A stretch of DNA of 64,000 bases. Origin: Narcine bancroftii. Its lineage: Eukaryota. Location of the stretch: the NCBI RefSeq assembly GCF_036971445.1, contig NC_091481.1, positions 83,328,001 to 83,392,000 on the forward strand, read 5' to 3'. Below the pieces are notes generated by a model. It was given only the letters and a program-made list of their open reading frames with translations. It was not told the origin of the DNA and did not search any database. Shown here piece after piece: positions 30,829 through 60,749 of this stretch (positions are counted from its first letter, which is position 1; the number at the start of each line of letters is the position of its first letter). The position numbers and the translations under genes were made by a program.

Positions 30829-30980
30829 NNNNNNNNNNNNNNNNNNNNNNNNNNNNNNNNNNNNNNNNNNNNNNNNNNNNNNNNNNNNNNNNNNNNNNNN
30901 NNNNNNNNNNNNNNNNNNNNNNNNNNNNNNNNNNNNNNNNNNNNNNNNNNNNNNNNNNNNNNNNNNNNNNNNNNNNNNNT
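30829..30980. other. Assembly gap (152 N)
   Basis: Run of N. Confidence 1.
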
Positions 30981-37504: not shown

Positions 37505-37601
37505 ATTTGCATGTTGCAATCTGTTCTATTTTGAAATAAAGATAACTATTTGGAAAGTGTTGCAACCTCAAGAGGTCCCCAGAGAATCGCAGCGAATAAA
37601 T
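37505..37601 (+). promoter_or_regulatory. Putative promoter of GPCR copy 1: octamer plus AATAAAT at the TATA position
   Basis: ATTTGCAT at 37505-37512 and AATAAAT at 37595, 90 bp before the ATG. Confidence 0.5.
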
Positions 37602-37684
37602 GAAATGTTCGGGGTCGGCATCAGCTCAGAGCTCCATTCAGAGAGATTGGCTGCAGCACGAAGATACGTCTTCACACGAAGAAC

Positions 37685-40020
37685 ATGCATCGCCCAGTTC
37701 AAGTTGCCGCGAAGATATGGTACACCATCATTGCCATTATTGGTGTTCCTGGTAAGTACCTTTCGCCTTTACATTTCACTGAGTCTGTGAGGGGGAGTCC
37801 AATGGCTTCACCTCCGCTCTGTCTGTCCTCAGGAATACGTTTTCCTCTCCAGCCCCTCTGAACTATGTCCTCCTCCTTCTGGCTACAAGGCTTAGCCCTT
37901 CCTTTACCTCCCTCCCTCCACATTGGTCAGGTCTGCATAAACGATGAAGCAAAATAAGCACATGCTGAGGGCACCAAGGGAAGGGGTGCCATAGAGTTTT
38001 TTCCAGTGACAGATTTACCAAGGTGCAGCTGAATGAGGGTCCCACAAAAAGGAGCCCCACCATAAATGGAAAAAAACATATATTATACCCGGTAAATACA
38101 TATAGAACATGGTGAGGTTATGTGATGGTCTGTGTCATGATACATCTATTGAGGTTATATTTAATATCGTTGTGGGGTCTGACCTCGAAGAAAACTGAAT
38201 TTTTAATCTATTATTTCACATTTAGCATTTGTTGAGTCTTAATATCTTGTCAGTCAGACCGTGGAGGGGTTGAGAGGGAACCACTGTGGGGCTGTGTTTA
38301 GCGCCTCAATTGGCCTTAATCCTTCCCTGTATAATCACTTTCCCGCATCTCCTCCATTACCCCACTTCTGCTCCCACCCAGTTTCTGCTTCAGATGCAAC
38401 AGGGATAGGGGGTCTTCTTGAGAGAGATCTCAGCGTGAAAGTGGCCAAGGTGAGAGATGGCGTTGAAGAAGTCCTGGCTTCATTAACCGTGGGATGGAAC
38501 ACAGGAGAAGGAGGGAATCGTTGTTCCAGTGAATGAAGATATTTATGGGGCCTCACCTGGATTATCGTGTGTAGTACGCGTTGCCACACTGCAGAATCAG
38601 ATTGTGTTGGTGTGGAGAGGGTGCAGAGGAGATTCACCAAGATGTTGCAGACACACGGGGGAGAGTAGATGCTGGATACTGGTGCAAATATAAACAACTG
38701 GATGGTGGAAGTTCGAGGGTCGATGGTGGATGGAAAACAATTATCGACATTTCTGGTCAGATCCCTTCATCCAGTCTTGACGAAGTGACACTGAATATCA
38801 GTTCGATTATGGGTTCCAACCCAAATCATTAACCTTTCTTTTCTCCCACTGATGCCCCTCGACCTGCTGAGCTCCTCCAGTAGAATTTGTTCTTGCTTAT
38901 TTTTTTACACCAGGATATTGTTGCCTATTTAGGATTATTTTAGTTTTAAAGAGAGATTACATGGGCTGGGTTTGATCCATTAAACAATCGAGCATAAAGT
39001 TTGTAAGCTGGTTGGGGTTTTAGGTAAGATTTTATCTTCTGTAACAAAATTTGGTTCCTTGCTGACGCAGGATGACCTGTACATTCTGACCCATTTTATC
39101 CTCTCTCTTGCTTTGCAGTGAATTTCGTGGCGATTGTGATCCTGTCCCGGGGTAAGTGCGGGCTCTCCCCTTGCACCACCCTGTACCTGGTGGCCATGGC
39201 GGTGACGGACCTCTTGACCATCGTCACCCAGGTCATACTACGGCGCATCAATATTTATTATTTCCCCTGGAACTTCCTGCGCATCACGCCCGTCTGCAGT
39301 GTGCTGTTTGTCCTCAGGCATGCGGCCAGGGGCTGTTCTGTCTGGTTCACTGTTACTTTCACCTTTGATCGATACGTGGCCATTTGCTGCCAGAAGTTAA
39401 AAAATAAATACTGCACCAGGAAAACCGCGGTGGTGGTTCTGACGATAACTGGCACTCTGGTCTGTTTAAAAAATATTCCCAAATACTTCACACAGGAACC
39501 TTGGGTGATAATCGATGGTATTCCTTGGCTGTGTGTCTTTAAGCCGGAATATTTCTCTCAGCCGGAATGGATGGGATTTGACTGGTTCGACGCTGTTTCT
39601 ACCCCATTGCTGCCTTTCGGATTAATCTTGTTATTTAATGTTCTGACGGTCAAACACATTCTGGTTGCCAGTCGGGTACGCAAGGGGCTAAGAGGTCAAA
39701 GCAGGGGAGAGAAAGGCAGTGACCTCGAGATGGAGAACCGCAGGAAGTCTATCATTTTACTCTTCACGCTATCGGGCAGCTTCGTCCTCCTGTGGCTGTC
39801 GTACATTATAGATTCCTTCTTTTATTCCATCGCTGGCACCACTATCGACAAATACAATATTTATCAGTACAACTTTCGTTACGTGGGAGCCATGCTTCTA
39901 CATTTAAGTTGCTGCACTAACACATTTATCTATGCTGTGACTCAGTCCAAGTTCAGGGAACAGCTCAAGAACTTGGCAAAGTGTCCTGTACCTTCAATTA
40001 TCCAACGAATTTATCAATAA
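37685..40020 (+). CDS. GPR139-like class A GPCR, copy 1 (exons 37685-37751 and 39119-40020; 322 aa)
   Basis: Phase-1 GT-AG intron splitting TM1. Seven hydrophobic segments, TFDRYVAIC, Cys pair at TM3/ECL2, NTFIY in TM7. The SRGKCGLS and RRKSIILL motifs are typical of the chondrichthyan GPR139-like family. Confidence 0.93.
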
Positions 40021-40189
40021 AACTGAACTCAACAATTGATGTGCACAGATGTACTGGGTCAGAACAAATATTGGACTCAGGGTTTGCAAAGCTGATCTGA
40101 GGTTTACGAGTCTACCTGTATCTTGACGTGAATGCCGGACTCAAACTCAGAATCAGAATTTAATGTCATGAACATAGTAATCCAGATTA

Positions 40190-42395
40190 GGTGGTAAAGA
40201 GGGGAGCTGAGACAGTGGAATGCTCCAATTGCAGAATGTGGGAATTCTGGGATAGCACAAGAGTCCCTGATGACTACACCTGGAAGAGGTGCATCCAGCT
40301 GCAGATCATTACAGACCATGTCGGGGGACTGGAGCTGGAACTGGATGAGCATCCGGGAGGCAGAGGGGAGTGATAGGTAGGGGCTATGAGGAGTCGGTCA
40401 CAGCGAAAGGGTAAGAGACGGGTAACTGGGTGACTGTTCGGAGATGAAAAGGGAGAAGGCATTCCAGTGCCGAGCACCCCTGCAACCGTTACCCATGTCA
40501 AGAAGTATACCCCTTTGGATACTGCTGGGGGCAGATGACCTATGTGGGCAAGTCGATGTCCAGATCAATACCACCGTGGTCAGATCTGAGCCACAGAGGG
40601 GAATGTTGAAGTCTGGGAGAGGGATAGTCATTGGTGACACGATTGATAGGAGGTTCCTTGGCCACAAAGGAGACTCCAAGATAATATAGGCTTTAATTGC
40701 TATAAACCTACAGGGGAATCTTGCCCATGCTGTTGGCCCAATTCCAAGGAAGTACTGAGGGCCATACTGCCTTTATTAGGGATCCTAATGGGGGAGGGGG
40801 GCAACCACGACACCTTCGTCACCACCAGATCCACCTGGAGGTTAGACTTAAGGGTTCCCAAGTCTCTTTGCCCCTCCAAATTTTAATTTGGTAGTACATA
40901 CTGGGACCATTCACATAGGCACGAGTGAGGCAGAAAGCCTGCAACGCAAGTTTAGGGAGTTAGAAAACAGTTTGAAAAGCATAAGAAATAAAGTCGATGG
41001 CCTTGTCGTTCACCTACAGACTGGCAAGTATGATACTGTGCCCATTCACAGAGTCGTGGCTAAAGGATGGATGTCATTTGTAGCATGAATGACATGCGTC
41101 GAAAGGAGAGGCAGGTAAGTAGAGGGAGGTCTGTTGGTAAGAAATGGCATTAAGTCATTAGAAAGAAGTGACATTGGATCAGAAGATAAAACATCATTGT
41201 GGGTTGAGTAATAAAATCGCAAGGGTCAAAGGACACTGTTGGCAGTTACATTCAGACCTCCAAACAGTAGCCGGGGTGTGGCCAACAAATTATAACGGCA
41301 AATGCAAAAATGCGTGTCGGAAGCGCGATGTTATGGTAGTCGTGGGTGTCTTTAACATGCAAGGAGATTGGGGAAACTAGGTTGGGACTGGATCTAAAGG
41401 GATAGAATTTGTAGAATGCCCACAAAGTGGCTTCTTAGAACAGATCGTGGCAGAGCTGACCAGGGAAGTGGCAATTATGGATTGGGTATTGGGAAAGGAA
41501 ACCAGGGTTGATAATGGAATTTATAGACCTGTTAGCCAAACATAGGTGGTGAGGATGTTTATGGAGTCAATTGTCAAGGATGAGGAGACATTTGGATCTT
41601 CAAAAGTTCTTTGAGAAGGTGCCACACATGAGGCTCCCTCACAAAGTAAGAGCCCATGGAATTACAGGGAAGACACCAGCATGGGTGGACAACTGTCTGA
41701 TCGACAAAGATCAGAGAGTGGAAATGAAGGGATCCTATTCTGGTTGGCTTCTGGCTCCCAGTGGTGATCCGCAGGAATCAGTGTTGGGGCCACTTCTTTC
41801 CACGATGTATGTTAATGGTCTGATTTGTGGAATAATGGATTTGAGGCTACGTTTAGCAGATGATACGGAGATTTGTGGAGGGGGAGGTAGGAAAGAGGAA
41901 AAGGAGGAGCCTGAGGTAGATTGGGAGAATGAGTACAGAAGAGGCAAATGAAATATAACATTGGAAAGGCTATGGTCGTGCACTTTGCTAGAAGGAATAA
42001 CAGGGCAAAATATCATTTCGATGGGGGAGAAAATTCAAAATTCAGAGGTACAAAGGGACTTGGAAATCCTCATGCAGGTCACCCTATAGGTTAACCTCCA
42101 GGATGGGTCGGCGGTGAAGAAGGCGAATGCAATGTTGCTGATCATGTCTGGAGGAATAGGATCCAAGAGCAGGGATGTGATGTTGAGGCTTTATAAGGCA
42201 CTGGTGACGCCTCACTTGGAGTACCGGGTACAGTTTTAGGTCCTTATTTTCCTTATAGAAGTATTTGGAATGTTGAAAGATCTGCACAGAGTATAGATGT
42301 GGCAAAGTTGCTTCCCATAGTCGAGGAGTCAAGGACAAGAGGGCACAACTACAGGATTGAAGGGCGGAAATTTAAAACAAAACTGAGGAGGAGTT
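40190..42395 (+). mobile_element. Degraded CR1 LINE (ORF1 zinc finger/SGNH, endonuclease, RT), duplicated with the GPCR unit
   Basis: VECSNCRMWE, IVIGD, VVHTGT, PQ.SVLGP and LADDT. Near-identical copy at 48345-50625. Confidence 0.85.
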
Positions 42396-42539
42396 ATGAC
42401 AGTGGTTTTCAAACGTTTTCTTTCCACCTACATCCCACCTTAAGCAATCCCTTACTAATCACAGAGCAGCGATGGCACAAGGATTACTTAAAGTGGGTTG
42501 TGAGTGGAAAGAAAAAGGTTGAGAATCACTGAGTTAAGG

Positions 42540-43650
42540 TTTCTAAGATATTTAAAGATCTTTTCAAAGAAAACTTCAGTCCTTTGTTTAGGGAGGTGGA
42601 AGAGACCTATCTAAATGGCCCCCTCTTTTATGTCGCTTGTTGGTAGAATTAACGCCATCAAAATGAATGTTCTGTCTAAATTTTTATATTTATTCCAAGC
42701 AATTCCGATTCCTATACCAAAGAAATTTTTTGACTCGGTTGAATCTGTGATCTCTTTGTATGTTGGGAACAACAAGAGTCCAAGGTTGAATGAATCTCAT
42801 TGACAAAAATCAAAAAGAAATGGGGGCTTTGCTTTGCTGATCCTGAGATATTATTATTGGGCTGTAGTGACCAGCACCCCGCGCCTCAAGATGACACAGG
42901 AAATGGCCGTCGAAGGCGGCAACTGGCAAAGCATCCTGCCGGCTGAAACACCCGTTTCCATAGGCCACTGGCAGAGCGGTGAAACTGGCCAATCATCGCC
43001 GGTGGATTGCAAAGGAACCCCATCGGGGCCCGGGGATCCAAGGGGACCAATTGGCAGCCGGCCCGCTCAAGCCACGCCCCGGTGGCGATGCGGCCGAGCT
43101 GACTATAAAAGGCACAGTTGTCACTGAATAAACTCAGTGTCGAATATGCTCTACTGGTGTGTGTGTGTCTTTTTTCTCCTTGCGGATTCGAGCTACAGCC
43201 TTAGGGCTATAACCGAGAACTACAATGTATTGAGCTCGCTACAGGGCGATTAATATTAAATGTATTAATTTCTGGATTCGTTGCATAGATAAATCGGACA
43301 GAGTGGACCTGCATGGGGCTGAACGGTTTTAACGTTTGCTCTGGCTACACTACTTGACACTTGCCTTCCATTTACTTTGGTAAAAAGTTCGGTTGTCAAA
43401 ACCTCATTATGAATTTAGTTTCAATTCTGTTTTGAACAGAATAATATTCCTTTATCTGCCATGATTATCAATAATTTCTTTTTCCTTCCATCTTGCCTTG
43501 ATAGTGCATTTTCATAAATGGAAGGAAAAGGGCGTCATTTCATTGTTTGATTTATTTGTAGATGGCTGTTTTATGACCTTTGAGCATTTTCACATACATT
43601 AAATCTCCACAATTTCCAAGTTAGAGATTTTCTGAGACACCAAGTTACTA
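42540..43650 (+). mobile_element. L1 ORF2 fragment interrupted by a solo LTR
   Basis: GRINAIKMNVLSKFLYLFQAIPI and YYWA|INIK across the LTR. Confidence 0.82.
42863..43243 (+). mobile_element. Solo LTR (381 bp)
   Basis: TGTAG...CTACA termini, TATAAAA and AATAAA, and a 4-bp TSD GGGC. Removing it restores the L1 frame YYWAINIK. Confidence 0.9.
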
Positions 43651-43689
43651 CTTTTCCGTTCAAGGAGTGGCCATGGGAACCCAAGTCAA

Positions 43690-44820
43690 GTCCCCTTTAT
43701 GTATCGTCCATACAACACTCGCACGGTAAAGACGAGATCACATTTCTCCAGGACCATGGAGCATATTAACAGAAATATAGGTTAGAATAGAAGTTCAACA
43801 AGTTTAAAATGTTAAAACTTATACATTAACAGTCTACAGTACCCTGGCCCCAAATGTTCTGGGAGTTCAGGAATTTGATAGCTTGTGGGGGATAAAGCTC
43901 TTGCCCAATCTGGATGTCAGGGCCCAAGTGCTAGGGTACCTCCTACCCGATAGCAGAAGGGAGAACAGTTTACATGAGAGGTGTGTGGAGTCCTTTACAA
44001 TATTTATTGTCCCTCACCTGCATCAAGTGTTGTAGACAAACTTCACGGTAGGAAGGGAGTCCCCAATGATCTTTTCTGCTGACATCACAATTCTCTGTAG
44101 GGTTTTGCAGTCCGAGGAGGTACAGTTTCCAAACCAGGTGGTGATGCAGTTGCCTAGGATGCTCTCGATACATCCTCTTAGAACGTAGTGAGGATGGAGG
44201 GTGGGAGATAAACCCTTTGCGGGAAGTAGAGGCGCTGCTGGGCTTTTTTGGCTATGGAACTGATGTTAAGAACCAGTTGAGATTCTATGCCAAGTGCACT
44301 CCAAGGAACTTGATACTCTTGACGACATCAACGGTAGAGCCATCAATGGTCAGCGGAGTGTGCCCCCCCCCCCCCCCCCCCACCAGGCCCTCCTGAGGTC
44401 GTCAACCATCTCTTTCGTTTTTTTGATGTCCAGGTACAGGTTGTTGGCTCTGCACCAGTCCGTTAGCAACTGCACCTCATCTCTGTACACTGAATCCTCA
44501 TTCCTACTGATCAGGCCCACCATGGTCGTGTCATGAGCGAGCTTGATGATGTGGTTCAAGCTGTGTTTAGCTACACAATCGTGGGTTGGCAGAGCGAACA
44601 GCAGTGGATTCAGCACACAGACCTGGCGGTGGGGAGATGGGGTCCAGTGTTCAGTCTGATGGTCATGATGGTGCTGTTACTGAGCCAGACTGCCTGAGTT
44701 CTCCCCAACAGAAAGCCAAGAATCCAATTGCAGAGGGAGGTGTTTAGACTCAACTGTGGTCCAATTGTGTTGAATGCTGAGCTGAAGTCAATAAACAGCA
44801 TTTGAACATGCGAGTCCTTG
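43690..44820 (-). mobile_element. Rex1/Babar-type LINE RT fragment (shorter copy at 50908-51590)
   Basis: [13 protein letters not shown] and [21 protein letters not shown]. Confidence 0.85.
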
Positions 44821-44829
44821 TTTTCCAGG

Positions 44830-45665
44830 TTTCCTTATTTCCCGCATGAGTCCCAGCTACGCCTGCCTGTTCGGGGAGAATCCATGCTGCAACCTACATT
44901 GGCAACTCCCCTTAACTCTTCCACTGGTACATCGACGACTATGTTGGGGCTGCCTCATTCACCCATGATGAGCTTGTCAACTTCAACCACTTTGGGGTCA
45001 ATTTCCAACCTGATCTCAAACTCACCTGGTCCATCTCAGACAACACTCCCCCTTTCCTGGATCTCTCTGTCTCCAGCTTGGGAGCCAAGCTTTATTACAC
45101 ACCCACTAACTCCCACTACTACGTGGACTAAACTTACTCACACCCTGGCCCATGCAAGGATTCCATTCACTTCTCTCAATTTCTCCATCTCTGCCACATC
45201 CATTCCCAAGATGAGGTCGCCTAGCCCAGATCTTCCGAAATGTCTGCCTTCTTCCGCAAATTCAGCTTCCCCTCCACCACCATCAACTCAGCCCTCACCT
45301 GCATTTCCTCCATTTCCCGCCCCTCTGGCCCCAGTCGTAACAATCATAGAATTCCCCCATTCTCATCTACCACCCCACCAGCCTCTGCATCAGACGAATT
45401 GTCCTCCCGACCCACCCAGCCGTCCCTCCTCCCCGATCGCTGCTGTCTCCTCCCTCCCTTCTCCACCTATTATCTGCTTTTGCCACCACCCCCACTTGCC
45501 CTGCCCCTTCTTCTCCCCCTCCCCCATCCTTTTGTTGGGATCCCGAAATGTTGGTTATGTATTTTTGCCTTTGCTACGTAAAGGACACTATTTCCCTTGG
45601 TGAGATTCTCCAGCAGTTTGTTTTAACTTCAATCACGGTGTGTACAGATTTTCGTGTTTTACTAT
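44830..45665 (+). mobile_element. Penelope-like element RT fragment and tail (copy at 51600-52380)
   Basis: YIDDYVG, LKLTWSISDNTLPFLDL and PCKDSI.FSQFL motifs. Confidence 0.8.
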
Positions 45666-45868
45666 AGATGACGGTCGACATAAATTCAGTGGGCAGAAAG
45701 GCCGGCTGTTGTGGTGTACGACTCCTTGAGTCTAATGCTCAATTTGCCAATATTGGAAGCAGATAATCTTATTCCAACCCTGTATCTCATATTCCTCATT
45801 AACCGTTTCTGTTCTCCTTTGCCAGTTTATGTTTAATTGGCACTTTCCAGTTACACAAGAGGGAGATG

Positions 45869-45965
45869 ATTTGCATGTTGCAATCTGTTCTATTTTTAAA
45901 TAAAGATAACTATTTGGAAGGTGTTGCAACCTCTAGACCTCCCCAGAGATTCGCAGCGTATAAAT
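45869..45965 (+). promoter_or_regulatory. Putative promoter of GPCR copy 2: octamer plus TATA box
   Basis: ATTTGCAT at 45869-45876 and TATAAAT at 45959-45965. Confidence 0.55.
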
Positions 45966-46048
45966 GAAATGTTCGGGGTCGGCATCAGCTCAGAGCTCCA
46001 TTCAGAGAGATTGCCTGCAGCACGAAGATACGTCTTCTCACGCAGAAC

Positions 46049-48169
46049 ATGCATCTCCCAGTTCAAGTTGCCGCGAAGATATGGTACACCCTCATTGCCA
46101 TTATTGGTGTTCCTGGTAAGTGCATTTCACTGCGTCTGTGCGGGTGAGTCCAATGGCCAGCTCTCTCCCAGTTGCTTCACCACTGCTGTGTCTGTTCTCA
46201 GGAATACGTTATCCACTCCAGCCCCTCTGAACTATGTCCATCTCCTTCTGGATACAAGGCTTAGCCCTTCCTTCTCCTCTTTCCCTCCACGCTGCTCAAT
46301 AAAATCAGGCCTGGATGAACCATGAAGCAAAGTGAGCACATGCTAAGGGCATCAAGGGAGAGGGGATCCACAGAGCTTTTTTTCACAGTGCCGGATTTAC
46401 CAGGGAGCAGCTGAACGAGGGCCCCGAAATTTACATTTTTTCCTATTGCCCTAGTTATAAGTAATCATTTGCTTATATTGCTTACTGCTATTTAGTGTAA
46501 ATAAAATTTTAAAAACATTGTATTTAATATGGTTGTGGAGAAAAATTGAAGTTTTCATCTATTATTTCACATTCAGTACTTATTGAGTCTTAACGTCAGT
46601 CAGACCATGGAAGGGTCGAGAGGGACCATTGTTGGGCTGTGTTTAGGGTCTCAATTGGCCTTAATCTGACCCTGTATAAATCTCCTCCCTCCTCTCCTCC
46701 ATTACCCACTTCTTCTCCCACCCAATCTCTGCTTCAGATGCAACAGGGATAGGGGTTGGTGTGGAGAGGGTGCAGAGGAGATTCACCAGGATATTGCAGA
46801 CAAACAAGGGAGGCAGACATTGGACACTGGAGCAAATATAAAGAACTAGATAGTGGAACTCAGCAGGTCGATAGTGGAAGGAAAACAATTGTCGATGTTT
46901 CTGGTCAGATCCCTTCATCTAGACTCGACGAAGTGACACTGAATATCAGTTCGATTATGGGTTCCAAATCAAATCATTAACCATTCTTTTCTCCCACTGA
47001 TGCCCCTCGACCTGCTGAGCTCCTCCAGTAGAATTTGTTCTTGCTTATTTTTTTACACTAGGATATTGTTGCCTATTCAGGATAATTTCAGTTTTAAAGA
47101 GAGATTACATGGGCTGGGTTTGTATCCAATAAACAATCGAGTGGAAAGTTTGTAAGTTGGTTGGGGCTTTTGGCAAGATTTTATCTTGTGTAACAAAATT
47201 TGGTTCCTTGCTGAGGCAGGATGACCTGTACATTCTGACCCATTTTATCCTCTCTCTTGCTTTGCAGTGAATTTCGTGGCGATTGTGATCCTGTCCCGGG
47301 GTAAGTGCGGGCTCTCCCCTTGCACCACCCTGTACCTGGTGGCCATGGCGGTGACGGACCTCTTGACCATCATCACCCAGGTCATACTACGGCGCATCAA
47401 TATTTATTATTTCCCCTGGAACTTCCTGCGCATCACGCCCGTCTGCAGTGTGCTGTTTGTCCTCAGGCATGCGGCCAGGGGCTGTTCTGTCTGGTTCACT
47501 GTTACTTTCACCTTTGATCGATACGTGGCCATTTGTTGCCAGAAGTTAAAAAATAAATTCTGCACCAGGAAAACCGCGGTGGTGGTTCTGACGATAACTG
47601 GCACTCTGGTCTGTTTAAAAAATATTCCCAAATACTTCACACAGGAACCTTGGGTGATAATCGATGGTATTCCTTGGCTGTGTGTCTTTAAGCCGGAATA
47701 TTTCTCTCAGCCGGAATGGGTGGGATTTGACTGGTTCGACGCTGTTTCAACCCCATTGCTGCCTTTCGGATTAATCTTGTTGTTTAATGTTCTGACCGTC
47801 AAACACATTCTGGTTGCCAGTCGGGTACGCAAGGGGCTAAGAGGTCAAAGCAGGGGAGAGAAAGGCAGTGACCTCGAGATGGAGAACCGCAGGAAGTCTA
47901 TCATTTTACTCTTCACGCTATCGGGCAGCTTCGTCCTCCTGTGGCTGTCGTACATTATAGATTCCTTCTTTTATTCCATCGCTGGCACCACTATCGACAA
48001 ATACAATATTTATCAGTACAACTTTCGTTACGTGGGAGCCATGCTTCTACATTTAAGTTGCTGCACTAACACATTTATCTATGCTGTGACTCAGTCCAAG
48101 TTCAGGGAACAGCTCAAGAACTTGGCAAAGTGTCCCGTACCTTCAATTATCCAACGAATTTATCAATAA
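46049..48169 (+). CDS. GPR139-like class A GPCR, copy 2 (exons 46049-46115 and 47268-48169; 322 aa)
   Basis: Same structure as copy 1, with 5 amino-acid differences by my count. Confidence 0.93.
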
Positions 48170-51100
48170 AACTGAACTCGACAATTGATGTGCACAGATG
48201 TATTGAGTCAGAACAAATATTGGACTCAGTGGAAGGGTTTGCAAAGCTGATCTGAGGTTTACGAGTCTACCTGCATCTTGACGTGAATGCCGGACTCAAA
48301 CTCAGAATCAGAATTTAATGTCATGAACATAGTAATCTAGATTAGGTGGTAAAGAGGGGAGCTGAGACAGTGGAATGCTCCAATTGCAGGATGCGGGAAC
48401 TCTGGGATAGCACAAGAGTCCCTGATGACTACACCTGGAAGAGGTGCATCCAGCTGCAGATCATTACAGACCGTGTCGGGGGACTGGAGCTGGAACTGGA
48501 TGAGCATCCGGGAGGCAGAGGGGAGTGATAGGTAGGGGCTATGAGGAGTCGGTCACAGGAAAAGGGTAAGAGACGGGTAACCAGGTGACTGTTCGGAGAT
48601 GAAAGGGGAAAAGGCATTCCAGTACCAAGCACCCCTGCAACTGTTACCCATGACAAGAAGTATACCCCTTTGGATACTGCTGGGGGCAGATGACCTATGT
48701 GGGCAAGTCGATCTCTAGATCAATACCACCGTGGTCAGATCTGAGCCACAGAGGGGAATGTTGAAGTCTGGGAGAGGGATAGTCATTGGTGACACGATTG
48801 ATAGGAGGTTCCTTGGCCACAAAGGAGACTCCAAGATAATATAGGCTTTAATTGCTATAAACCTACAGGGAAATCTTGCCCATGCTGTTGGTCCAATTCC
48901 AAGGAAGTACTGAGGGCCATACCGCCTTTATTAGGGATCCTAATGGGGGGGGAAACCATGACACCTTCGTCACCACCAGATCCACCTGGAGGTTAGAATT
49001 AAGGGTTCCCAAGTCTCTTTGCCCCTCCAAATTTTAATTTGGTAGTACATACTGGGACCATTCACATAGGCACGAGTGAGGCAGAAAGCCTGCAATGCAA
49101 GTTTAGCGAGTTAGAAAACCATTTGAAAAGCATAAGAAATAAAGTCGATGACCTTGTCATTCAGCTACAGACTGGCAAGTATGATACTGTGACCATTTAC
49201 AGAGTCGTGGCTGAAGGATGGATGTAATTTGGAGCCTGAATGACATGCGTCGAAAGGAGAGGCAGGTAAGTAGAGGGAGGTCTGTTGGTAAGAAATGGCA
49301 TTAAGTCATTAGAAAGAAGTGACATTGGATCAGAAGATAAAACATCATTGTGGGTTGAGTAACAAAATCGCAAGGGTCAAAGGACACTGTTGGCAGTTAC
49401 ATTCAGATCTCCAAACAGTAGCCAGGGTGTGGCCAACAAATTATAACGGCAAATGCAAAAATGCGTGTCGGAAGCGCGATGTTATGGTAGTCGTGGGAGT
49501 CTTTAACATGCAAGGGGATTGGGGAAACTAGTTTGGGACTGGATCTAAATGGATAGAATTTGTAGAATGCCCACAAAGTGGCTTCTTAGAACAGATCGTG
49601 GCTGAGCTGACCAGGGAAGTGGCAATTATGGATTGGGTATTGGAAAGGAAACCAGGGTTGATAATGGAATTTATAGACCTGTTAGCCAAACATAGGTGGT
49701 GAGGATGTTTATGGAGTCAATTGTCAACGATGAGGAGACAATTACCTGGAGGTACATGACAAGTTAAGCCAAAGGCAGCATGGTTTCCTTAAGGGAAAAT
49801 GTTGCCTGACTGCAATTTTCTGAGGACATCTGGACCTTCAAAAGTTCTTTGGGAAGGTACCACACATGAGGCTTCCTCACAAAGTAAGAGCCCATGGAAT
49901 TACAGGGAAGACACCAGCATGGGTGGACCATTGTCTGATCGACAAGGATCAGAGAGTGGAAATGAAGGGATCCTATTCTGGTTGGCTTCTGGTTCCCAGT
50001 GGTGATCCGCAGGGGTCAGTGTTGGGGCCACTTCTTTCCACGATGTATGTTAATGGTCTGATTTGTGGAATAATGGATTTGAGGCTACGTTTAGCAGATG
50101 ATACGGAGATTGGTGGAGGGGGAGTTAGGAAGGAGGAAAAGGAGGAGCTGCAGGGAGCATGAGGTAGATTGGAAGAATGTGCACAGAAGTGGCAAATGAA
50201 GTAGAACATTGGAAAGGCTATGGTCGTGCACCTTACTAGAAGGAATAAAAGGGCAGAATATCATTTGAATAGGGAAAAAATTCAAAATTCAGGGATGCAA
50301 AGGGACTTGGAAATCCTCATGCAGGTCACCCTGCCTGGGTCAGTGGTGAAGAAGGTGAATGCAATGTTGGCGATCATGTCTGGAGGAATAGGATCCAAGG
50401 GCAGGGATCCTATAAAGGCTTTATAAGGCCCTGGTGAAGCCTCACTTGGAGTACAGGGGTATGGTTTTAGGTCCTTATTTTCCTTATAGAAGTAGTTTTA
50501 ATGTTCAAAAGTCTGGACAGAGTCGATGTGGCAAAGTTGCTTCCCATAGTCAAGGAGTCAAGGACAAGAGGGCACAACTTCAGGATTGAAGGGCGCCAAT
50601 TTAAAACAAAACTGAGGAGGAATTATAACAGTGGTTTTCAAACGTTTTCTTTCCACCCACATCCCACCTTAAGCAATCCCTTACTAATCACGGAGCAGCG
50701 ATGGCACAAGGATTACTTAAAGTGGGTTGTGAGAGGAAAGAAAAAGGTTGAGAACCACTGAGTTAAGGTTTCTAAGATATTTAAAGATCTTATCAAAGAA
50801 AACATTCCTTTGTTTAGGGAGGTGGAAGAGACCTTATCTAAATGGCCCCCTCATTCTATATCGCTTGTTGGCAGAATAAATGCCATCAAAATGAACATTC
50901 TGTCTAAACCAGGCGGTGATGCATTTACCTAGGATGCTCTCGATACATCCTCTATAGAACATAGTGAGGATGGAGGGTGGAAGATGAACTCTTTGCGGGA
51001 AGTAGAGGCGCTGCTGGACTTTCTTGCCTATGGTACTGGTGTTGACCAGTTGAGATTCTCTGCAAAGTGCACTCCAAGGAACTTGATACTCTTGACGACA

Positions 51101-52582
51101 TCAACGGTAGAACCATCAATGGTCACGGAGCATGCCACACCCCACCCGCACCGAGCCTTCCTAAGGTCGACAACCATCTCTTTAGTTTTTTTGACGTTCA
51201 TGAACAGGTTGTTGGCTCTGCACCAGTCCGTTAGCAACTGCACCTCATCTCTGTACACTGAATCCTCATTCCTACTGATCAGGCCCACCATGGTCGTGTC
51301 ATGAGCGAGCTTGATGATGTGGTTCAAGCTGTGTTTAGCTACACAATCGTGGGTTGGCAGAGCGAACAGCAGTGGATTCAGCACACAGACCTGGCGGTGG
51401 GGAGATGGGGGCCCCGTGTTCAGTCTGATGGTCATGATGGTGCTGTTACTGAGCCAGACTGCCTGAGGTCTCCCCAACATGAAGCCAAGAATCCAATTGC
51501 AGAGGGAGGTGTTTAGACTCAACTGTGGTCCGATCGTGTTGAATGCTGAGCTGAAGTCAATAAACAGCATTTGAACATACAAGTCCTTGTTTTCCAGGTT
51601 TCCTTATTTCCCGCATGAGTCCCAGCTATTCCTGCCTGTTTGAGGACAATCCATGCTGCAACCTACATTGGCAAGACCCCTTAACTCTTCCTCTGGTATA
51701 TCGACGACTATGTTGGGGCTGCATCGTTCACCCACGATGAGCTTGTTAACTTCATCCACTTTGGGGTCAATTTCCACCCTGATCTCAAACTCACCTGGTC
51801 CATCTCGGACCACACTCCCCCTTTCCTGGATCTCTCTGTCTTCATCTTGGGAGCCAAGCTTTATTACAAACCCACTAACTCCCACTTCCTCACATCCTGT
51901 CCCCTGCAAGGATTCCATCCCCTTTTCTCAATTTCTCTGTCTCCACTGCATACGCTCCCAAGATGAGGTCGCCTAACCCAGATCTTCTGAAATGTCTGCC
52001 TTCTTCCACAAACACCCTCACCTGCATTTCCTCCATTTCCTGCCCCTCCTGCCACAAACATAGAATTCCCTCATCCTCACCTACCACCCCACCAGCCTCC
52101 GCATCAGACAAATTATACTCCCGACCCACCCAGCCGTCCCTCCTCCCCGATCGCTGCTGTCTCCTCCCTCCCTTCTCCACCTATTATCTGCTTTTGCCAC
52201 CACCCCCACTTGCCCTGCCCCTTCTTCTCCCCCTCCCCCATCCTTTTGTTGGGATCCCGAAATGTTGGTTATGTATTTTTGCCTTTGCTACGTAAAGGAC
52301 ACTATTTCCCTTGGTGAGATTCTCCAGCAGTTTGTTTTAACTTCAATCACGGTGTGTACAGATTTTCGTGTTTTACTATAGATGACGGTCGACATAAATT
52401 CAGTGGGCAGAAAGGCCGGCTGTTGTGGTGTACGACTCCTTGAGTCTAATGCTCAATTTGCCAATATTTGAAGCAGATAATCTTATTCCAACCCTGTATC
52501 TCATATTCCTCATTAACCGTTTCTGTTCTCCTTTGCCAGTTTACGTTTAATTGGCACTTTCCAGTTACACAAGAGGGAGATG

Positions 52583-52679
52583 ATTTGCATGTTGCAATCT
52601 GTTCTATTTTTAAATAAAGATAACTATTTGGAAGGTGTTGCAACCTCTAGACCTCCCCAGAGATTCGCAGCGTATAAAT
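52583..52679 (+). promoter_or_regulatory. Putative promoter of GPCR copy 3: octamer plus TATA box
   Basis: ATTTGCAT at 52583-52590 and TATAAAT at 52673-52679. Confidence 0.55.
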
Positions 52680-52762
52680 GAAATGTTCGGGGTCGGCATC
52701 AGCTCAGAGCTCCATTCAGAGAGATTGCCCGCAGCACGAAGATACGTCTTCTCACGCAGAAC

Positions 52763-55067
52763 ATGCATCTCCCAGTTCAAGTTGCCGCGAAGATATGGTA
52801 CACCATCATTGCCATTATTGGTGTTCCTGGTAAGTGCATTTCACTGCGTCTGTGTGGGTGAGTCCAATGGCCAGCTCTCTCCCAGTTGCTTCACCACTGC
52901 TGTGTCTGTTCTCAGGAATACGTTTTCCACTCCAGCCCCTCTGAACTATGTCCATCTCCTTCTGGATACAAGGCTTAGCCCTTCCTTCACCTCTCTCCCT
53001 CCATGCTGGTCAATAAAATCAGGCCTGGATGAACCATGAAGCAAAATGAGTAGGTGCCGAGGGCACCAAGGGAAGAGGGACTCCACAGATGTTTTTTTCC
53101 CAGTCCCCGATTTACCAGGGAGCAGCTGAACGAGGACCCCAAAATTTATATTGGTTTCTATTGCCCTAGTTATAAGTTAATATTTCCTTATATTGCTTAC
53201 TGCTATTTAGTGTAAAATAAAAATTTTAAACTGATTATATTTAATATAGTTGTGGAAGTAAACTAAAGTTTTAATCTATTATTTCACATTCAGTACTTAT
53301 TGAGTCTTAATATCCTGTCAGTCTGACCCTGGAAGGGTCGAGAGGTAGTCGTTGTTGGGCTGTGTTTAGGACCTCAATTGGCCTTAATCCTGCCCTGAAG
53401 AAAACCCTTCCCTGCACCTCCTCCATTACCCCACTTCTGCTCCCACCCAATCTCTTCTTCTGATGCAACAGGGATAGTGAGTCTTCTTGAGAGAGATCTC
53501 GCTGTTAAGTGGTCAAGGTGATAGATAGGCATTGAAGAAAGCCTCCATGCGTGGCTTCATTAACTGTGGGATGGAACACAAGAGGAGGAGAATGATTGTT
53601 CCAGCAATTGAAGATGTTTATGGGGTCTCACCTGGATTATCGTGTGTAATATGCGTTGCCACACTGCAGAACAGGATGGGATTGGTGTGGAGAGGTTGCA
53701 GAGGAGATTCACCAGCATGATACATACACACAGGGGAGAGAAGACATTGGATAATGGAGCAAATATAAACAACTGGATGGTGGAAGTTGGAGGGTCGATA
53801 GTGGAAGGAAAACAATTGTCAACATTTCTGGTCAGATCCCTTCATCCAGACTTGATGAAGTAACAGTGAATATCAGTTCAATTTCGGGTTCCAACCCAAA
53901 TTATTAACTATTCTATTTCTCCAACTGATGCCCCTCGACCTGCTGAGCTCCTCCAGTAGAATTTGTTGTTGCGTTTTTTTTAAACATGAGGATATTGTTG
54001 CCTATATTGGATCAGTTTAGTTTTAAAGAGAGATTACATGGCCAATATACAATCGAGCATAAAGTTTGTAAGCTGGTTGGGGCTTTTGGCAAGATTTTAT
54101 CTTGTGTAATGAGGCAGGACGACTTGCACATTCTGACCCATTTTATCCTCTCTCTTGCTTTGCAGTGAATTTCGTGGCGATTGTGATCCTGTCCCGGGGT
54201 AAGTGCGGGCTCTCCCCTTGCACCACCCTGTACCTGGTGGCCATGGCAGTGGCGGACCTCTTGACCATCGTCACCCAGGTCATACTACGGCGCATCAATA
54301 TTTATTATTTCCCCTGGAACTTCCTGCGCATCACGCCCGTCTGCAGTGTGCTGTTTGTCCTCAGGCATGCGGCCAGGGGCTGTTCTGTCTGGTTCACTGT
54401 TACTTTCACCTTTGATCGATACGTGGCCATTTGTTGCCAGAAGTTAAAAAATAAATACTGCACCAGGAAAACCGCGGTGGTGGTTCTGACGATAACTGGC
54501 ACTCTGGTCTGTTTAAAAAATATTCCCAAATACTTTATTCTGAAACCTTGGGTAATCATCGACGGTATTCCTTGGCTGTGTATATTTAAGCCGGAATATT
54601 TCTCTCAGCCGGAATGGGTGGGATTTGACTGGTTTGACGCTGTTTCAACCCCATTGCTGCCTTTCGGATTAATCTTGTTGTTTAATGTTCTGACCGTCAA
54701 ACACATTCTGGTTGCCAGTCGGGTACGCAAGGGGCTAAGAGGTCAAAGCAAGGGAGAGAAAGGCAGTGACCCCGAGATGGAGAACCGCAGGAAGTCTATT
54801 ATTTTACTCTTCACGCTATCGGGCAGCTTCGTCCTCCTGTGGCTGTCGTACATTATAGATTCCTTCTTTTATTCCATCGCTGGCATCGCAACCAGGGAAT
54901 ACAACAGTTCTCAATACAACTTTCGTTATGTGGGAGTCATGCTTCTACATTTAAGTTGCTGCACTAACACATTTATCTATGCTGTGACTCAGTCCAAGTT
55001 CAGGGAACAGCTCAAGAACTTGGCAAAGTGTCCTGTACCTTCAATTATCCAACGAATTTATCAATAA
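52763..55067 (+). CDS. GPR139-like class A GPCR, copy 3 (exons 52763-52829 and 54166-55067; 322 aa)
   Basis: Same two-exon structure, intact. About 17 differences from copy 1, mostly in ECL2 and ECL3. Confidence 0.93.
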
Positions 55068-55559
55068 AACTGAATTCGACAATTTATATGTGGACATATA
55101 GCGCAGTAACAGGCCCTTTCAGCCCACGAGCCCATGCCCGAATTATCCAGGACCCCGCACATTGTAATAGGTGGGAGGGAACTGCAGCACCCAGCGGGGA
55201 CCCACTCAGGCACAGGAAGAATGAGCAAACTCCCTACATCAGAATACCGGATTTGAACCCCGGTCTCTAACAGCATGGCCTGAACCAGTAGGCCAATCGG
55301 GCCGCTCTCAGTTACAAATGGTGGTAACAATGAGCAAACAATGGATCCACTCGGTGGGGGGGGGGGGGAGTTGGGGGTGGCGGGGAAGGGGTGGTTTGCA
55401 AAGCCCATCTGAGATTTGCAGCTTCTCCTGTATCTTGCTAATTTCCCTGTTAAACCTGGACACAAACTCAAAGGACTCACTTGTCCCGTAGAGAAGAACG
55501 TTTGTGAGCAGGAGATTCTGCACCTCCCGGTTCAAGAAGAGACTGATTTTTTTTTTCTT

Positions 55560-56810
55560 CTCGAAAGTACCTGCCTGTAGGCGCACATGAGGCTTCCTTA
55601 CAAAATGAGAGCCCATGGAATTACAGGGAAGACAACAGCATGGGTGGAGCTTTGGCTGATCAGAGGGAATCAGAGCGGGATCCTATTCTGGTTGGCTTCC
55701 GGCTACCAGTAGTGACCCGCAGGGGTCAGTGTTGGGGCCACTTCACTTTTCGATGAACATTAATGGTCTGATTTGCAGAATAATGGATTTGAGGCTACGT
55801 TTAGCAGATGACACAGAGATTTGTGGAGGGGGAGGTAGGAAGGAGGAAAAGGAGGAGCTGCAGGGAGCCTGAGGTAGATTGGGAGAATGAGTACAGAAGA
55901 GGCAAATGAAATAGAACATTGGAAAGGCTATGGTCGTGCACTTTGCTAGAAGGAATAAAAGGGCAGACTATTATTTGGATGGGGGAGAAAATTCAAAATT
56001 CAGAGATGCAAAGGGACTTGGAAATCCTCATGCAGGTCATCCTATAGGTTAACCTCCAGGTTGGGTCGGTGGTGAAGAAGGCGAATGCAATGTTGGCGAT
56101 CATGTCTGGAGGAATCGGATCCAAGAGCAGGGATGTGATGTTGAGGCTTTATAAGGCACTGGTGAGGCTTCACTTGGAGGATGGGGTACAGTTTGGATCT
56201 TTATTTAAAAAAGGACATGCTGCCATTGGAAAGGGTTCAGGGAAGATTTACAAGAAATATTCCTGGAATGAAGGAATTAGCATGTGACGAACATTTTCAG
56301 AACCATTGGGTGGGGGTGGGGGGGATTGGGGTGTGTTATAGAAGAATTTTGAATGTGGAAACAGTGTAGATGTGGCAAAGTTGCTTCTCATAGTCAAGGA
56401 GTCAAGGAAAAGAGGGCACAACTACAGGATTGAAGGGCGCCAATTTAAAACAAAACTGTGCAGGAGTTTCTTTAGCCAGAGAGTGTGAACGCCTGGAATT
56501 CTCTCCCACGGTAAATCACAGAGGTCAGGTCATTGGGTGATTTAAGGCGGAGATTGATAGGTATCTTTTTTTTTAAATTTTTTATTTTTCACACCATAAA
56601 CCACATTAATCATGATACATACTGTTTCCTTTTCAAATATATACAGTGCCATTTTCTCCCCCCCACTCCCTCCTCCCATAGATTGATAGGTATCTAAAGG
56701 TGATTGGGAGAAGGCAGTGAATGGGGCTGAGTGGTAGAATGGATCAGCTCATGATGGAATGGTAGCATGGACTTGATGGGCAGAATGGTCTACTTCTGCT
56801 CCTGTATCTT
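55560..56810 (+). mobile_element. CR1 LINE RT and 3' portion, homologous to the CR1 in units 1 and 2
   Basis: Shares diagnostic degraded sequence (GGATTTGAGGCTACGTTTAGCAGATG) with the copies near 41840 and 50075. Confidence 0.82.
56567..56679 (-). mobile_element. 113-bp 5'-truncated L1 3' end with 16-bp TSD
   Basis: Resembles the 3' tail of the L1 at ~35180-35300. Flanked by AGATTGATAGGTATCT at 56551-56566 and 56680-56695. Confidence 0.88.
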
Positions 56811-58268
56811 ATCATTTTATTTCACAAAATTGGTTTTTTGAGGGAGGATTACCGGGGAAAATATTGCTATAAATTACATTTTAAAAATAAATTTTGTAGA
56901 GGCAGAGAAAGTCAGGTTGTTTATTGTCCATTCAGAGATCTGATGGCAGAGGGGAAGAAGCTATTTCTGTGCTGCTGGGAGTTCGCCTTCAAGCTCCGGT
57001 ACCTCCTTCCCGATGGTAGCTAAAAGAGACGTGACCTTGGTCATGAGTTTCCTTGAGGACAGAGGCTGCTTTCTTAAGACACCACCTCTTGTAGATGTCC
57101 TCGATGGAGTGAAGATTCATGTCCATGACGACACTGGCCAAGTTCTCAACTCTCTGTCCTTTACATTGGCACCTCCGTACCAGAGAGCAACAAAACCAGA
57201 CAACGTGCTCTCCACGGTACACCTGTAGGAATTTCCTTTTCTCATTACAATGGAATGTGCATCTAGTATTTCACCAGACAACTCCTTCCATATTGAGTGC
57301 AACACCTCCAGATGCTGTGATTGTAGTTACACAAAAGGGCTGGAGGAACTCAGCAGGTCCTGCAGCAAATATACTGTATATAACCAGCGTTTCCAGTCTG
57401 CTCCCTTCGAGCAGAAAGCAGGCAGATCCCTGAATAAAGAAGAGGGAGGAGGTGTGAAGAAGGGGCAGGAGAACTGGCCAACAGGCAAGAGGCCAGAGTT
57501 GGATAGGGACGGGGAGGGCAGGAGACAATTGATAAGGGGTGGGGTCGATCTGTGAATACAGAGCAGGAGGAATGGAGACAGAGGGATAGAGAGAGACAGG
57601 GATGGCTCCATGAACTGACCATCCCCTAAGTATGGGTTGAGGTCGGGAGAATGTGCAATGCGCAGGCAGTCACCTGAATAAAAAGGCAGGAGTGTGAGGG
57701 AAGAAGGGGCAAGGAGAGGAGCCAATGAGGCCATAGGTGGACATCGACAGGGAGCAGGAGAGAGATGCTGAGAATTTATTGGGACAAAGGTAAATGCAGA
57801 GCTGGAGTACAGAGGATAAGGAAAGAGAGAGAGAGACAGGCTCGTTCCATTTGCTCATCACCTTCTGGGCATAGGTTAAGGTGAAGAGGCAGGAGGATTA
57901 GACGGTGATCTGAGGTAAATTGTTTTCACCCAGATGGGGGCTGCAGTCTGGAATGTACTGACCGAGAAGGAGGGAGCAAGTGCTCTCACAACATTGACAC
58001 AATGTCTGGGCCAACAGTTGGATTGCCACGGCATAGAGGGCTGTGGATGAAGTGCTGGGATGGGTATAGATGGGTACATGATGGTCAACATGAATTCCAT
58101 GGGTGGAAGGGCCTGTTTTTGTGCTGTACGACTCCATGAGTCTAATGTTGAATTTGCCAAAACTAGAAGCAGATAATCTTATTCTCATATTCCAGCATTA
58201 ACCGTTTCTGTTCTCCTCTGCCAGTTTACATTTAATTGGCACTTTCTAATTTACACAAGAGGGAGATG

Positions 58269-58365
58269 ATTTGCATGTTGCAATCTGTTCTATTTTGAAA
58301 TAAAGATAACTATTTGGAAAGTGTTGCAACCTCAAGAGGTCCCCAGAGAATCGCAGCGAATAAAT
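58269..58365 (+). promoter_or_regulatory. Putative promoter of GPCR copy 4: octamer plus AATAAAT
   Basis: ATTTGCAT at 58269-58276 and AATAAAT at 58359. Same type as copy 1. Confidence 0.5.
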
Positions 58366-58448
58366 GAAATGTTCGGGGTCGGCATCAGCTCAGAGCTCCA
58401 TTCAGAGAGATTGGCTGCAGCACGAAGATACGTCTTCACACGAAGAAC

Positions 58449-60749
58449 ATGCATCGCCCAGTTCAAGTTGCCGCGAAGATATGGTACACCATCATTGCCA
58501 TTATTGGTGTTCCTGGTAAGTACCTTTCGCCTTTACATTTCACTGAGTCTGTGAGGGGGAGTCCAATGGCTTCACCTCTGCTCTGTCTGTCCTCAGGAAT
58601 ACATTTTCCACTCCAGCTCCTCTGAACTATGTCCACCTCCTTCTGACAACACGCTGTCGCCCTTCCTTCACCCCCCTCCCTTCATGCTGGTCAATAAAAT
58701 CATGCCGGGATTAACCATAAAGCAAAATGAGCATGTGCTGAGGGCACTAAGGGAAGAGGTGTCAGAAATTTTTTTCCAATACCAGATTTACCAGGCTGTA
58801 GCTGAATGAGGGCTCCAGCAAAACCCTACTACCCCACAATAAATGAAAAAATACATAGACAAGTCGAAGTTATGTGATGGTCTGTGTCGTGATACAGCTA
58901 TTGAGGTTATATTTAATATCGTTGTGGGGTCTGACCTCAAAGAAAACTGAATTTCTTTAATCTATTATTTCACATTCAGCGCTTATTGAGTCTTAACATC
59001 TTGTCAGTAAAAGGAAGGGTCGAGGAGGAACCACTGTTGAGCTCTGTTTAGGCCTCAATCAGGCCCTGTATAAATCTCTTACCTTCATCTCCTCCATTAC
59101 CCCATTTCTGCTCCCACCCAATCAGGGATAGAGGGTCTACTTGAAGAGATCTCGCCATTAAGGTGGCCAAGGTGATAGATAGGTGTTGAAGAAGGCCTCC
59201 ACGCATGGCTTCATTAACCGTGGGATGGAACTCAAGAGTAGGGGTATCATTGTTCCAGTGATTGAAGATGTTTATGGGGCCTCACCTGGATTATCGTGTG
59301 TATTACACGTTACCACACTGCAGAACAGGATGGGGTTGGTGTGGAGAGGGTGCAGAAGAGATTCACCAGGATGATACTGACACACAGGGGAGAGAAGACG
59401 CTGGATACTGGAGCAAATATAAACAACTGGATGGTGGAAGTTGGAGGGTCGATGGTGGAAGGAAAACAATTATCAACATTTCTGGTCAGATCCCTTCATC
59501 CAGTCTTGATGAAGTGACAGTGAATATCAGTTCGATTACAGGTTCCACCCCAAATGATTAACCTTTCTTTTCTCCTACTGATGCCCCTCGAACTGCTGAG
59601 CTCCTCAAGTAGAATTTGTTCTTGCTATTTTTTTACACCAGGATATTGTTGCCTCTTTACGATTATTTCTGTTTTAAGGACAGATTACATGAGCTGGGTT
59701 TGTATCCAATAAACAATCGAGCATAAAGTTTGTAAGCATGTTGGGGTTTTAGGTAAGATTTTATCTTGTGTAACAAAATTTGGTTCCTTGCTGAGGCAGG
59801 ATGACCTGTACATTCTGACCCATTTTACCCTCTCTCTTGCTTTGCAGTGAATTTCGTGGCGATTGTGATCCTGTCCCGGGATAAGTGTGGGCTCTCCCCT
59901 TGCACCACCCTGTACCTGGTGGCCATGGCGGTGGCGGACCTCTTGACCATTGTCAACCACGTCATACTATGGCGGGTCAATATTTATTATTTCCCCTGGA
60001 ACTTCCTGCGCATCACGCCCGTCTGCAGTGTACTGTTTGTCCTCATGAATGCGGCCAGGGGCTGTTCTGTCTGGTTCACTGTTACTTTCACCTTTGATCG
60101 ATACGTGGCCATTTGCTGCCAGAAGTTAAAAAATAAATTCTGCACCAGGAAAACCGCGGTGGTGGTTCTGACGATAACTGGCACACTGGTCTGTTTTAAA
60201 AATATTCCCAAGTACTTCACACAGGAACCTTGGGTGATAATCGATGGTATTCCTTGGCTGTGTGTCTTTAAGCCAGAATATTTCTCTCAGCCAGAATGGG
60301 TGGGATTTGACTGGTTCGACGCTGTTTCAACCCCATTGCTGCCTTTTGGATTAATCTTGTTGTTTAATGTTCTGACGGTCAAACACATTCTGGTTGCCAG
60401 TCGGGTACGCAAGGGGCTAAGAGGTCAAAGCAGGGGAGAGAAAGCCAGTGACCCCGAGATGGAGAACCGCAGGAAGTCTATCATTTTACTCTTCACGCTA
60501 TCGGGCAGCTTCGTCCTCCTGTGGCTGTCGTACATTGTAGATTCCTTCTTTTATTCCATCGCTGGCACCACTATCGACAAATACAATATTTATCAGTACA
60601 ACTTTCGTTACGTGGGAGCCATGCTTCTACATTTAAGTTGCTGCACTAACACATTTATCTATGCTGTGACTCAGTCCAAGTTCAGGGAACAGCTCAAGAA
60701 CTTGACAAAGTGTCCCGTACCTTCAATTATCCAACGAATTTATCAATAA
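58449..60749 (+). CDS. GPR139-like class A GPCR, copy 4 (exons 58449-58515 and 59848-60749; 322 aa)
   Basis: Same structure, intact. About 15 differences from copy 1, including the TM2 top and TM3. Confidence 0.93.

Follow-up and report, generated by a model that had tools for sequence, protein, structure and literature searches.

A tandem array of four GPR139-related receptor genes in Narcine bancroftii points to a large shark-and-ray receptor family with a variable predicted ligand pocket

The stretch of Narcine bancroftii DNA analysed here (contig NC_091481.1, positions 83,328,001 to 83,392,000, hereafter the window, 64,000 nucleotides) carries four head-to-tail genes for G-protein-coupled receptors (GPCRs) of class A that belong with a large set of shark and ray proteins. 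Across this family the predicted ligand pocket was let vary while the signalling face was held fixed, which is, as far as sequence can tell, a ligand-diversifying signature, and the family is probably a ligand-diversified (ligand-discriminating) repertoire. Taken by itself, the array is a recent duplication of an ordinary kind, valuable as an entry point to the family.

The signature was observed in an alignment of 55 of the best 120 family matches with three window exons (57 matches were full-length, and two with odd N-termini were dropped). Among the 55 members, entropy was 1.62 bits at 28 predicted pocket positions, 0.98 bits at 47 other positions of the outer helix halves (p=0.003) and 0.39 bits at 84 inner-half positions, with distinct core-pocket strings in 54 of the 55. 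The same order of pocket, outer and inner values is found within single species, both in Heterodontus alone (26 rows; 1.30, 0.74 and 0.33, p=0.002), with 26 distinct pocket strings, and in Pristiophorus alone (14 rows; 1.04, 0.63 and 0.16, p=0.012). The order is reversed in 20 amphibian orthologues of a sister gene (0.05, 0.38 and 0.52), which have a mean identity of 77% compared with 72% in the family; a second single-copy clade, that of the coelacanth protein P0232 described below, represented by 35 selected full-length named rows at 57% identity, gives 0.70, 1.02 and 0.84. The intracellular loops hold 0.45 bits in the family and 0.90 bits in the single-copy amphibian gene, and since inner face and loops are conserved as much as in that gene or more, signalling appears to be under strong constraint. 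The pattern is also seen without the pocket list, as chemical-class entropies of the outer and inner helix halves are 0.73 and 0.21 in the family and 0.09 and 0.23 in the amphibians. Of the 39 positions that vary most in the family, 23 do not vary at all in the amphibians, among them 2.61, 3.29, 3.32, 3.33, 6.51, 7.35 and 7.39. At the family level, a variable predicted pocket with a single-copy sister as control supports the initial annotation, which had proposed a diversifying, ligand-discriminating receptor system, and does so more strongly than the evidence then at hand; the array taken alone gives a different answer (below).

The protein search with gene 1 exon 2 matched 2376 of 3456 candidate clusters (90% identity level) at E<=1e-10. 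The names among the best 120 of these are shark or ray in 119 cases, with one unnamed, and include 59 distinct clusters from the horn shark Heterodontus francisci and 23 from Pristiophorus japonicus; the many uncharacterised cartilaginous-fish relatives mentioned in the initial annotation are thus represented by at least 119 shark- or ray-named clusters among the best 120 of 2376. The top match is a Narcine bancroftii protein at 94%, and the window genes share 62-94% identity with the family matches among those 120, together with the motifs RGKCGLS, CCQKLK.KYC, DPEME.RR and CCTNTFIY common to them and their shark and ray paralogues. A profile search over 50%-identity representatives gave 132 hits at E<=1e-30, many of them partial, and the nearest public clusters hold several near-identical members, seven for the Narcine protein P0002 and five for the skate protein P0003. 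The 59 clusters from one species within the best 120, together with the tandem array described here, constitute a lineage-specific clustered expansion. One predicted protein of 1244 amino acids (aa), P0193, fuses a family member to a second protein that we take to be a voltage-gated sodium channel, and is probably a fused gene model marking a neighbouring locus. The family is apparently undescribed so far: no description was found in the literature searched, a coverage that ends at subscription journals and unread supplements. There is no mention of it in the available portions of a catshark sensory paper (PMC11979771) and a chemoreceptor review (PMC12294341), and a search for GPR139 in 12 of the 24 supplementary files of a whale shark paper gave no hit. 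In one horn shark alone, the 59 family clusters within the best 120 have been masked by the name of a single brain orphan receptor.

Phylogenetic placement was examined in two quick IQ-TREE runs of 58 and 34 rows, from which true GPR139 and GPR142 proteins were absent according to a motif check of 411 proteins. With a support of 100, the window genes fall in a group with skate and stingray proteins, and the family groups with an amphibian and sturgeon clade at a Shimodaira-Hasegawa-like approximate likelihood ratio (SH-aLRT) of 99 in both trees. A search with a newt protein of that clade, P0230, returned 25 matches, comprising 20 amphibian species (a single cluster in each of the 20), one sturgeon and four shark or ray family members, and the gene is apparently single-copy in amphibians and sturgeon. 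The P0230 clade is colinear with the family across 325 columns at 32% identity, and the N-terminus is short in both. Automatically named 'probable GPR139', it keeps the GPR139-like residues F3.33, K6.51, P6.50 and N7.39, whereas the family pocket is variable, and it is likely to represent an orphan receptor with a fixed ligand. This single-copy sister offers a clean before-and-after comparison and an experimental handle in Xenopus.

A second clade, recovered with the coelacanth protein P0232, includes catshark, sawshark, sturgeon, teleost, amphibian and reptile proteins (best 120 of 145 matches). Its catshark and sawshark members are its own, separate from the expanded family in the trees. This clade may correspond to GPR210, whose A and B forms were described from coelacanth, gar and fishes as orphan clades beside GPR139 and GPR142 (Rinne et al. 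2019, PMC6504862; here and below, papers are cited from the portions of their text available); neither 'shark' nor 'cartilag' occurs in the main text of that paper as available. Members of the P0232 clade are also automatically named GPR139, and because two models carry names indicating fusion with TMEM183A, it is suggested that the P0232 gene adjoins TMEM183A.

The class A anchors N1.50, D2.50, C3.25, D-R3.50, P5.50, W6.48 and N7.49/Y7.53 are invariant in 55 of 55 members, and W4.50, P6.50 and P7.50 are replaced. An AlphaFold model of P0002 (predicted local distance difference test score 77) shows a class A bundle of seven helices plus helix 8, with a hairpin in extracellular loop 2 (ECL2). 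By sequence, the best solved relative is human GPR139 (PDB 7vug), at 38.9 bits in a single search and 58 bits by profile, compared with 43 bits for the next solved receptor in the profile search, the ghrelin receptor; by structure, GPR139 ties for first place among the matches to the P0002 model (VIA Z 26.4, rmsd 3.1, 279 aligned). GPR139 is not among the 49 rows listed by Foldseek, which are peptide and chemokine receptors. It is likewise the nearest characterised receptor for P0230 and P0232. Both GPR139 and the window genes have two exons (the GPR139 structure being taken from PMC7318219), and W6.48 and the DR of the DRY motif persist in the family. That no characterised vertebrate receptor is nearer than GPR139 would place the window genes in the GPR139/GPR142/Wamide-RFamide receptor superclade.

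The family nevertheless differs from GPR139 in several respects. The L-Trp/L-Phe site of GPR139 consists of six residues, E3.32, F3.33, H5.43, W6.48, R6.51 and N7.38/7.39 (PMC7318219), of which the window genes retain only W6.48; among the 55 family members, E3.32, H5.43 and R6.51 occur in none, N7.39 in one and F3.33 in seven. The family lacks P6.50, its ECL2 is about 12 residues longer, and the cysteine pair between C3.25 and ECL2 is invariant in the family, whereas the aligned GPR139 has none. GPR139 is also single-copy, in contrast to the multi-copy shark and ray family. Orthology with GPR139 was considered and is rejected on an identity of approximately 27% between the human and window proteins (counted by eye), set against the 70% shared by human and zebrafish GPR139 (PMC7318219), and on four of the six ligand residues being absent or nearly so. 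The label 'GPR139-like' given in the initial annotation reflects only the automatic name 'probable G-protein coupled receptor 139', and the genes form a separate paralogous lineage without the GPR139 ligand residues.

Within the window, the start codons of the four genes lie at 37685, 46049, 52763 and 58449, reproducing the annotated head-to-tail, two-exon arrangement and its spacings of 8364, 6714 and 5686. The family features of the window are as follows (TM, transmembrane helix):
29181-29250, + strand: orphan exon 1, a divergent one from this family; 23 codons plus 1 nt beginning with ATG, GTAATG donor
37285..37684, + strand: upstream block copied along with each gene (given for gene 1); groups genes 1+4 and 2+3
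37685..37751, + strand: gene 1 exon 1; 22 codons plus 1 nt, encoding a very short N-terminus and the first half of TM1; start as in P0002 and P0003
39119..40020, + strand: gene 1 exon 2; remaining seven-TM domain and stop
46049..46115, + strand: gene 2 exon 1
47268..48169, + strand: gene 2 exon 2; protein 98% identical to gene 1, with the same pocket
52763..52829, + strand: gene 3 exon 1
54166..55067, + strand: gene 3 exon 2; divergent tracts at codons 146-162 (ECL2 start) and 263-280 (extracellular loop 3/TM7)
58449..58515, + strand: gene 4 exon 1
59848..60749, + strand: gene 4 exon 2; private T59N, Q60H, R64W, R89M and H90N, at predicted pocket positions 2.56, 2.57, 2.61, 3.32 and 3.33

In each gene, exon 1 is 67 nt with a phase-1 GTAAGT donor (positions 37751, 46115, 52829 and 58515), and exon 2 is 902 nt, preceded by a TTTGCAG acceptor; the GT-AG introns between them, all phase 1, measure 1367, 1152, 1336 and 1332 nt in genes 1 to 4. 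All four encode open proteins of 322 aa, so that the intact frames and splice sites of the initial annotation hold throughout. The exon 1 model is backed by the same start in the public predicted proteins P0002 and P0003. Exact matches to 37541-37673 and 39674-39783 occur in contigs of sequencing run X1, guessed to be RNA, and nothing is concluded from them; the joint of exon 1 and exon 2 is not among the 15 of 24 joints listed for guessed-RNA runs, in which no spliced read was seen. The exon 2 products of all four genes match Pfam 7tm_1 (E ~1e-20, 72-76 bits against a curated cut-off of 30.5), and at E<=0.001 this was the only Pfam match of the window proteins, with no olfactory, vomeronasal or taste family matched. 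The duplicated upstream block is likely to contain the promoter and 5' untranslated region, a function proposed from its position. A scan for olfactory promoter motifs (O/E, homeodomain), made without shuffle control, turned up one or two loose matches in each gene and is uninformative. In each of the four genes the stop codon is overlapped by an AATAAA (40016, 48165, 55063 and 60745), which may indicate very short 3' ends or be a coincidence.

The four proteins share 91.9-98.4% pairwise identity with pairwise dN/dS (nonsynonymous to synonymous rate ratio) of 0.30-0.43, indicating purifying selection at the level of the coding sequence. Exon 2 shows no gaps in any of the six pairs and 0.9-5.8% divergence; over their full length the introns are 11-19% divergent, each pair having about 12-17 gaps. 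Relationships between copies change along the repeated unit: informative sites group genes 1+4 against 2+3 in the upstream region and first half of the intron and genes 1+2 downstream, genes 1 and 2 have a 3-kb block in common at 96% identity, and genes 2 and 3 differ by 0.7% across 400 upstream bases. Between genes 1 and 3, 24 of 105 bases differ in the two divergent tracts of gene 3, compared with 12 of 864 elsewhere. We infer from these mosaic copies that unequal crossing-over or conversion has acted on the array. Import of the gene 3 tracts from a distant paralogue was dropped as an explanation; their best match is skate P0003, and since this is the skate orthologue, the tracts look ancestral. 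Near-invariant family positions are altered on the intracellular side by P225L (genes 1 and 2), Y120F (genes 2 and 4) and G34D (gene 4), substitutions that could alter coupling or be a sign of early decay.

Genes 1-3 share a cationic pocket with R2.61, R3.32, H3.33, R3.36, K4.60 and R7.35 and a net charge of +3. Skate, stingray and devil ray relatives retain this pocket, and a net charge of +2 or +3 is seen in four other ray proteins, whereas the pocket is net negative in 46 of the 55 family members. For genes 1-3 we predict a single, shared anionic ligand. The private changes of gene 4 remove two of the arginines, R2.61 and R3.32, and its specificity for that ligand is predicted to be shifted or lost; genes 1 and 4 provide a natural pair differing mainly in the predicted pocket.

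Several observations count against the reading of this family as a diversified, chemosensory repertoire. The 28-position pocket list behind the entropies is our own, as is the residue numbering, which was set by conserved alignment anchors; the entropies are unweighted for relatedness; and 18 of the 20 control rows are frogs. The family counts derive from automatic gene predictions, partial and fused models included, and the trees give weak support (SH-aLRT 83 and 78) to the family as monophyletic without the amphibian clade. In the array, genes 1 and 2 have the same pocket string, from which that of gene 3 departs at a single position out of 28. Twenty-three of the 31 variable residues of the array lie in the outer half (p=0.0002), but the ratio of replacement to synonymous changes is no higher there than elsewhere (23:15 and 8:9, p=0.39), and enrichment in that half is seen for synonymous changes too (p=0.036). 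Because synonymous changes cluster in the same outer half and the replacement ratio is not higher there, this local clustering is best read as block mosaicism and not as positive selection. Positive selection inside the array is unsupported, with no replacement excess in the outer half (four window coding sequences only) and dN/dS below 1. As three of the four copies share a pocket, synonymous changes co-cluster and dN/dS is below 1, the array genes alone show no diversifying repertoire, and this part of the original proposal is weaker than claimed. A variable pocket, moreover, speaks for ligand diversification and not for chemosensation, since immune or gut sensing predicts the same.

The explanation that we favour takes the four genes to be tandem copies, all intact, that belong to one ray subfamily of a large class A GPCR family in sharks and rays. 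A single ancestral gene, still single in amphibians and sturgeon, would have been amplified in cartilaginous fish by tandem duplication, with unequal crossing-over and gene conversion keeping neighbours alike except in ligand-facing tracts. Each pocket type would bind different ligands, and the family as a whole may serve sensory epithelia in detecting many chemical cues from outside, signalling through a common G-protein pathway. The vertebrate OR, TAAR, V1R/ORA, V2R/OlfC, T1R, T2R, FPR and MRGPR families show the same combination of compact tandem genes, a short N-terminus, birth-and-death evolution, a variable pocket and a fixed signalling face. The OR, TAAR, V1R, V2R, T1R and T2R families are of different ancestry, and by Pfam the window proteins belong to none of them. 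A chemosensory role is our best guess, held tentatively and ranked ahead of immune or barrier sensing, drift, endogenous signalling and artefact, in that order.

Precedents exist among invertebrate receptors of the same superclade. GPR139 and GPR142 are sister to the protostome MIP, proctolin, myosuppressin and FMRFamide receptors (PMC8557429); the nematode srw chemoreceptor candidates, proposed as environmental-peptide sensors, arose out of the myosuppressin/FMRFamide receptors (PMC2576165), and similar class A expansions, with fast-evolving pockets, have been reported from lophotrochozoans (PMC11886862). Like the shark and ray family, the nematode and lophotrochozoan expansions are lineage-specific and clustered. 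A Pfam Srw mark was found on one of the best 120 family matches, whereas the window proteins match 7tm_1 only, and the family lies among vertebrate GPR139-related clades, so that the likeness to srw would represent parallel co-option and not orthology. Among vertebrates, cartilaginous fishes are credited with the smallest olfactory receptor repertoire (a mean of 43.8 genes and a range of 20-62) despite many olfactory neurons (PMC10869828), and a 'relative paucity' of GPCRs has been reported for them (PMC8455134). The stronger proposal, that the family is an unrecognised extra shark and ray chemoreceptor family at least as large as the known OR, TAAR, V1R and V2R repertoire combined and sparsely expressed in olfactory or taste cells, is doubtful; if true, it would parallel the nematode srw expansion and explain the seemingly few smell receptors of sharks.

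The nearest competitor, unlikely but the best placed of the alternatives, is an immune or barrier-sensing repertoire in which leukocytes, mast-like cells or nociceptors would use these receptors for microbial or damage-associated peptides and metabolites, as formyl-peptide receptors or MRGPRs do. Compact genes in tandem arrays, a variable pocket and a fixed inner face would be expected here too, and the P0002 model with its ECL2 hairpin is as like peptide and chemoattractant receptors as it is like GPR139. MAS1 and its relatives are reported missing in cartilaginous fishes (PMC8455134), which would leave such a role open. The constancy of the window subfamily pocket in skate, stingray, devil ray and electric ray, however, is more in keeping with a stable ligand than with a race between host and pathogen.

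Somewhat less likely again is mostly neutral birth-and-death, in which repeat-driven copies would be redundant or barely expressed and the pocket would vary by relaxed constraint following loss of the ancestral ligand. The shared pocket of genes 1-3, the lack of an outer-half replacement excess, the repeat-rich spacers, the mosaic copies and the orphan exon 1 are all consistent with this, and pocket entropy above that of the frozen amphibian gene would also follow from relaxed constraint alone. It accounts poorly for an inner face and intracellular loops conserved as in that gene or more (0.39 against 0.52 and 0.45 against 0.90 bits) and for pocket positions more variable than adjacent non-pocket positions (p=0.003), and the array itself keeps four intact frames at low dN/dS beside introns diverged by 11-19%.

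It is improbable that the family comprises endogenous peptide or metabolite receptors (for neuromodulators, hormones, bile salts or reproductive signals) with paralogues split by tissue, even though the nearest solved relative, GPR139, is an internal neuromodulatory receptor (PMC7318219), the ancestral ligands of its clade are thought to be aromatic-ended peptides (PMC8557429) and rays conserve the pocket of the window subfamily. A receptor whose endogenous ligand is fixed retains its pocket, as is seen in both single-copy control clades, and 54 distinct core-pocket strings in 55 members would demand an equally large set of endogenous ligands. An assembly artefact of collapsed or duplicated haplotypes, suggested by the 96% block of genes 1 and 2 and the near-identical upstream bases of genes 2 and 3, is highly improbable, as all six pairs differ, spacer lengths and contents are unlike, relationships switch along the unit, the array contains no N, and the nearest public clusters are also multi-member and near-identical.

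Upstream of the array, the orphan exon 1 scores weakly by tblastn (E 0.05), with phase and donor position identical to those of the array genes. A six-frame profile search found no exon 2 for it before gene 1 or elsewhere in the window, and the only run of N in the window (151 nt, 30829-30980) lies downstream of it and upstream of the array. Possible readings are that it is a remnant, that gene 1 uses it as an alternative first exon, or that it belongs to a gene whose exon 2 falls in the assembly gap. At the other edge, 62216-63720, in the spacer after gene 4, matches 40977-44424, in the spacer after gene 1, at 78-83%, and because the one spacer repeats the other, the array may run past base 64000. 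Among the 16 non-receptor long frames scanned elsewhere in the window, no further protein-coding gene was identified. A 430-aa open frame on the negative strand (15271-16560) encodes a reverse transcriptase domain (Pfam RVT_1, 89 bits) and presumably belongs to a LINE-type (long interspersed nuclear element) element. An AT-rich region with broken frames on the positive strand (32581-35300), in which Pfam gave no match, resembles what we take to be an L1-type element, and decayed reverse transcriptase fragments are also present at 36172-36612 and 51031-51603.

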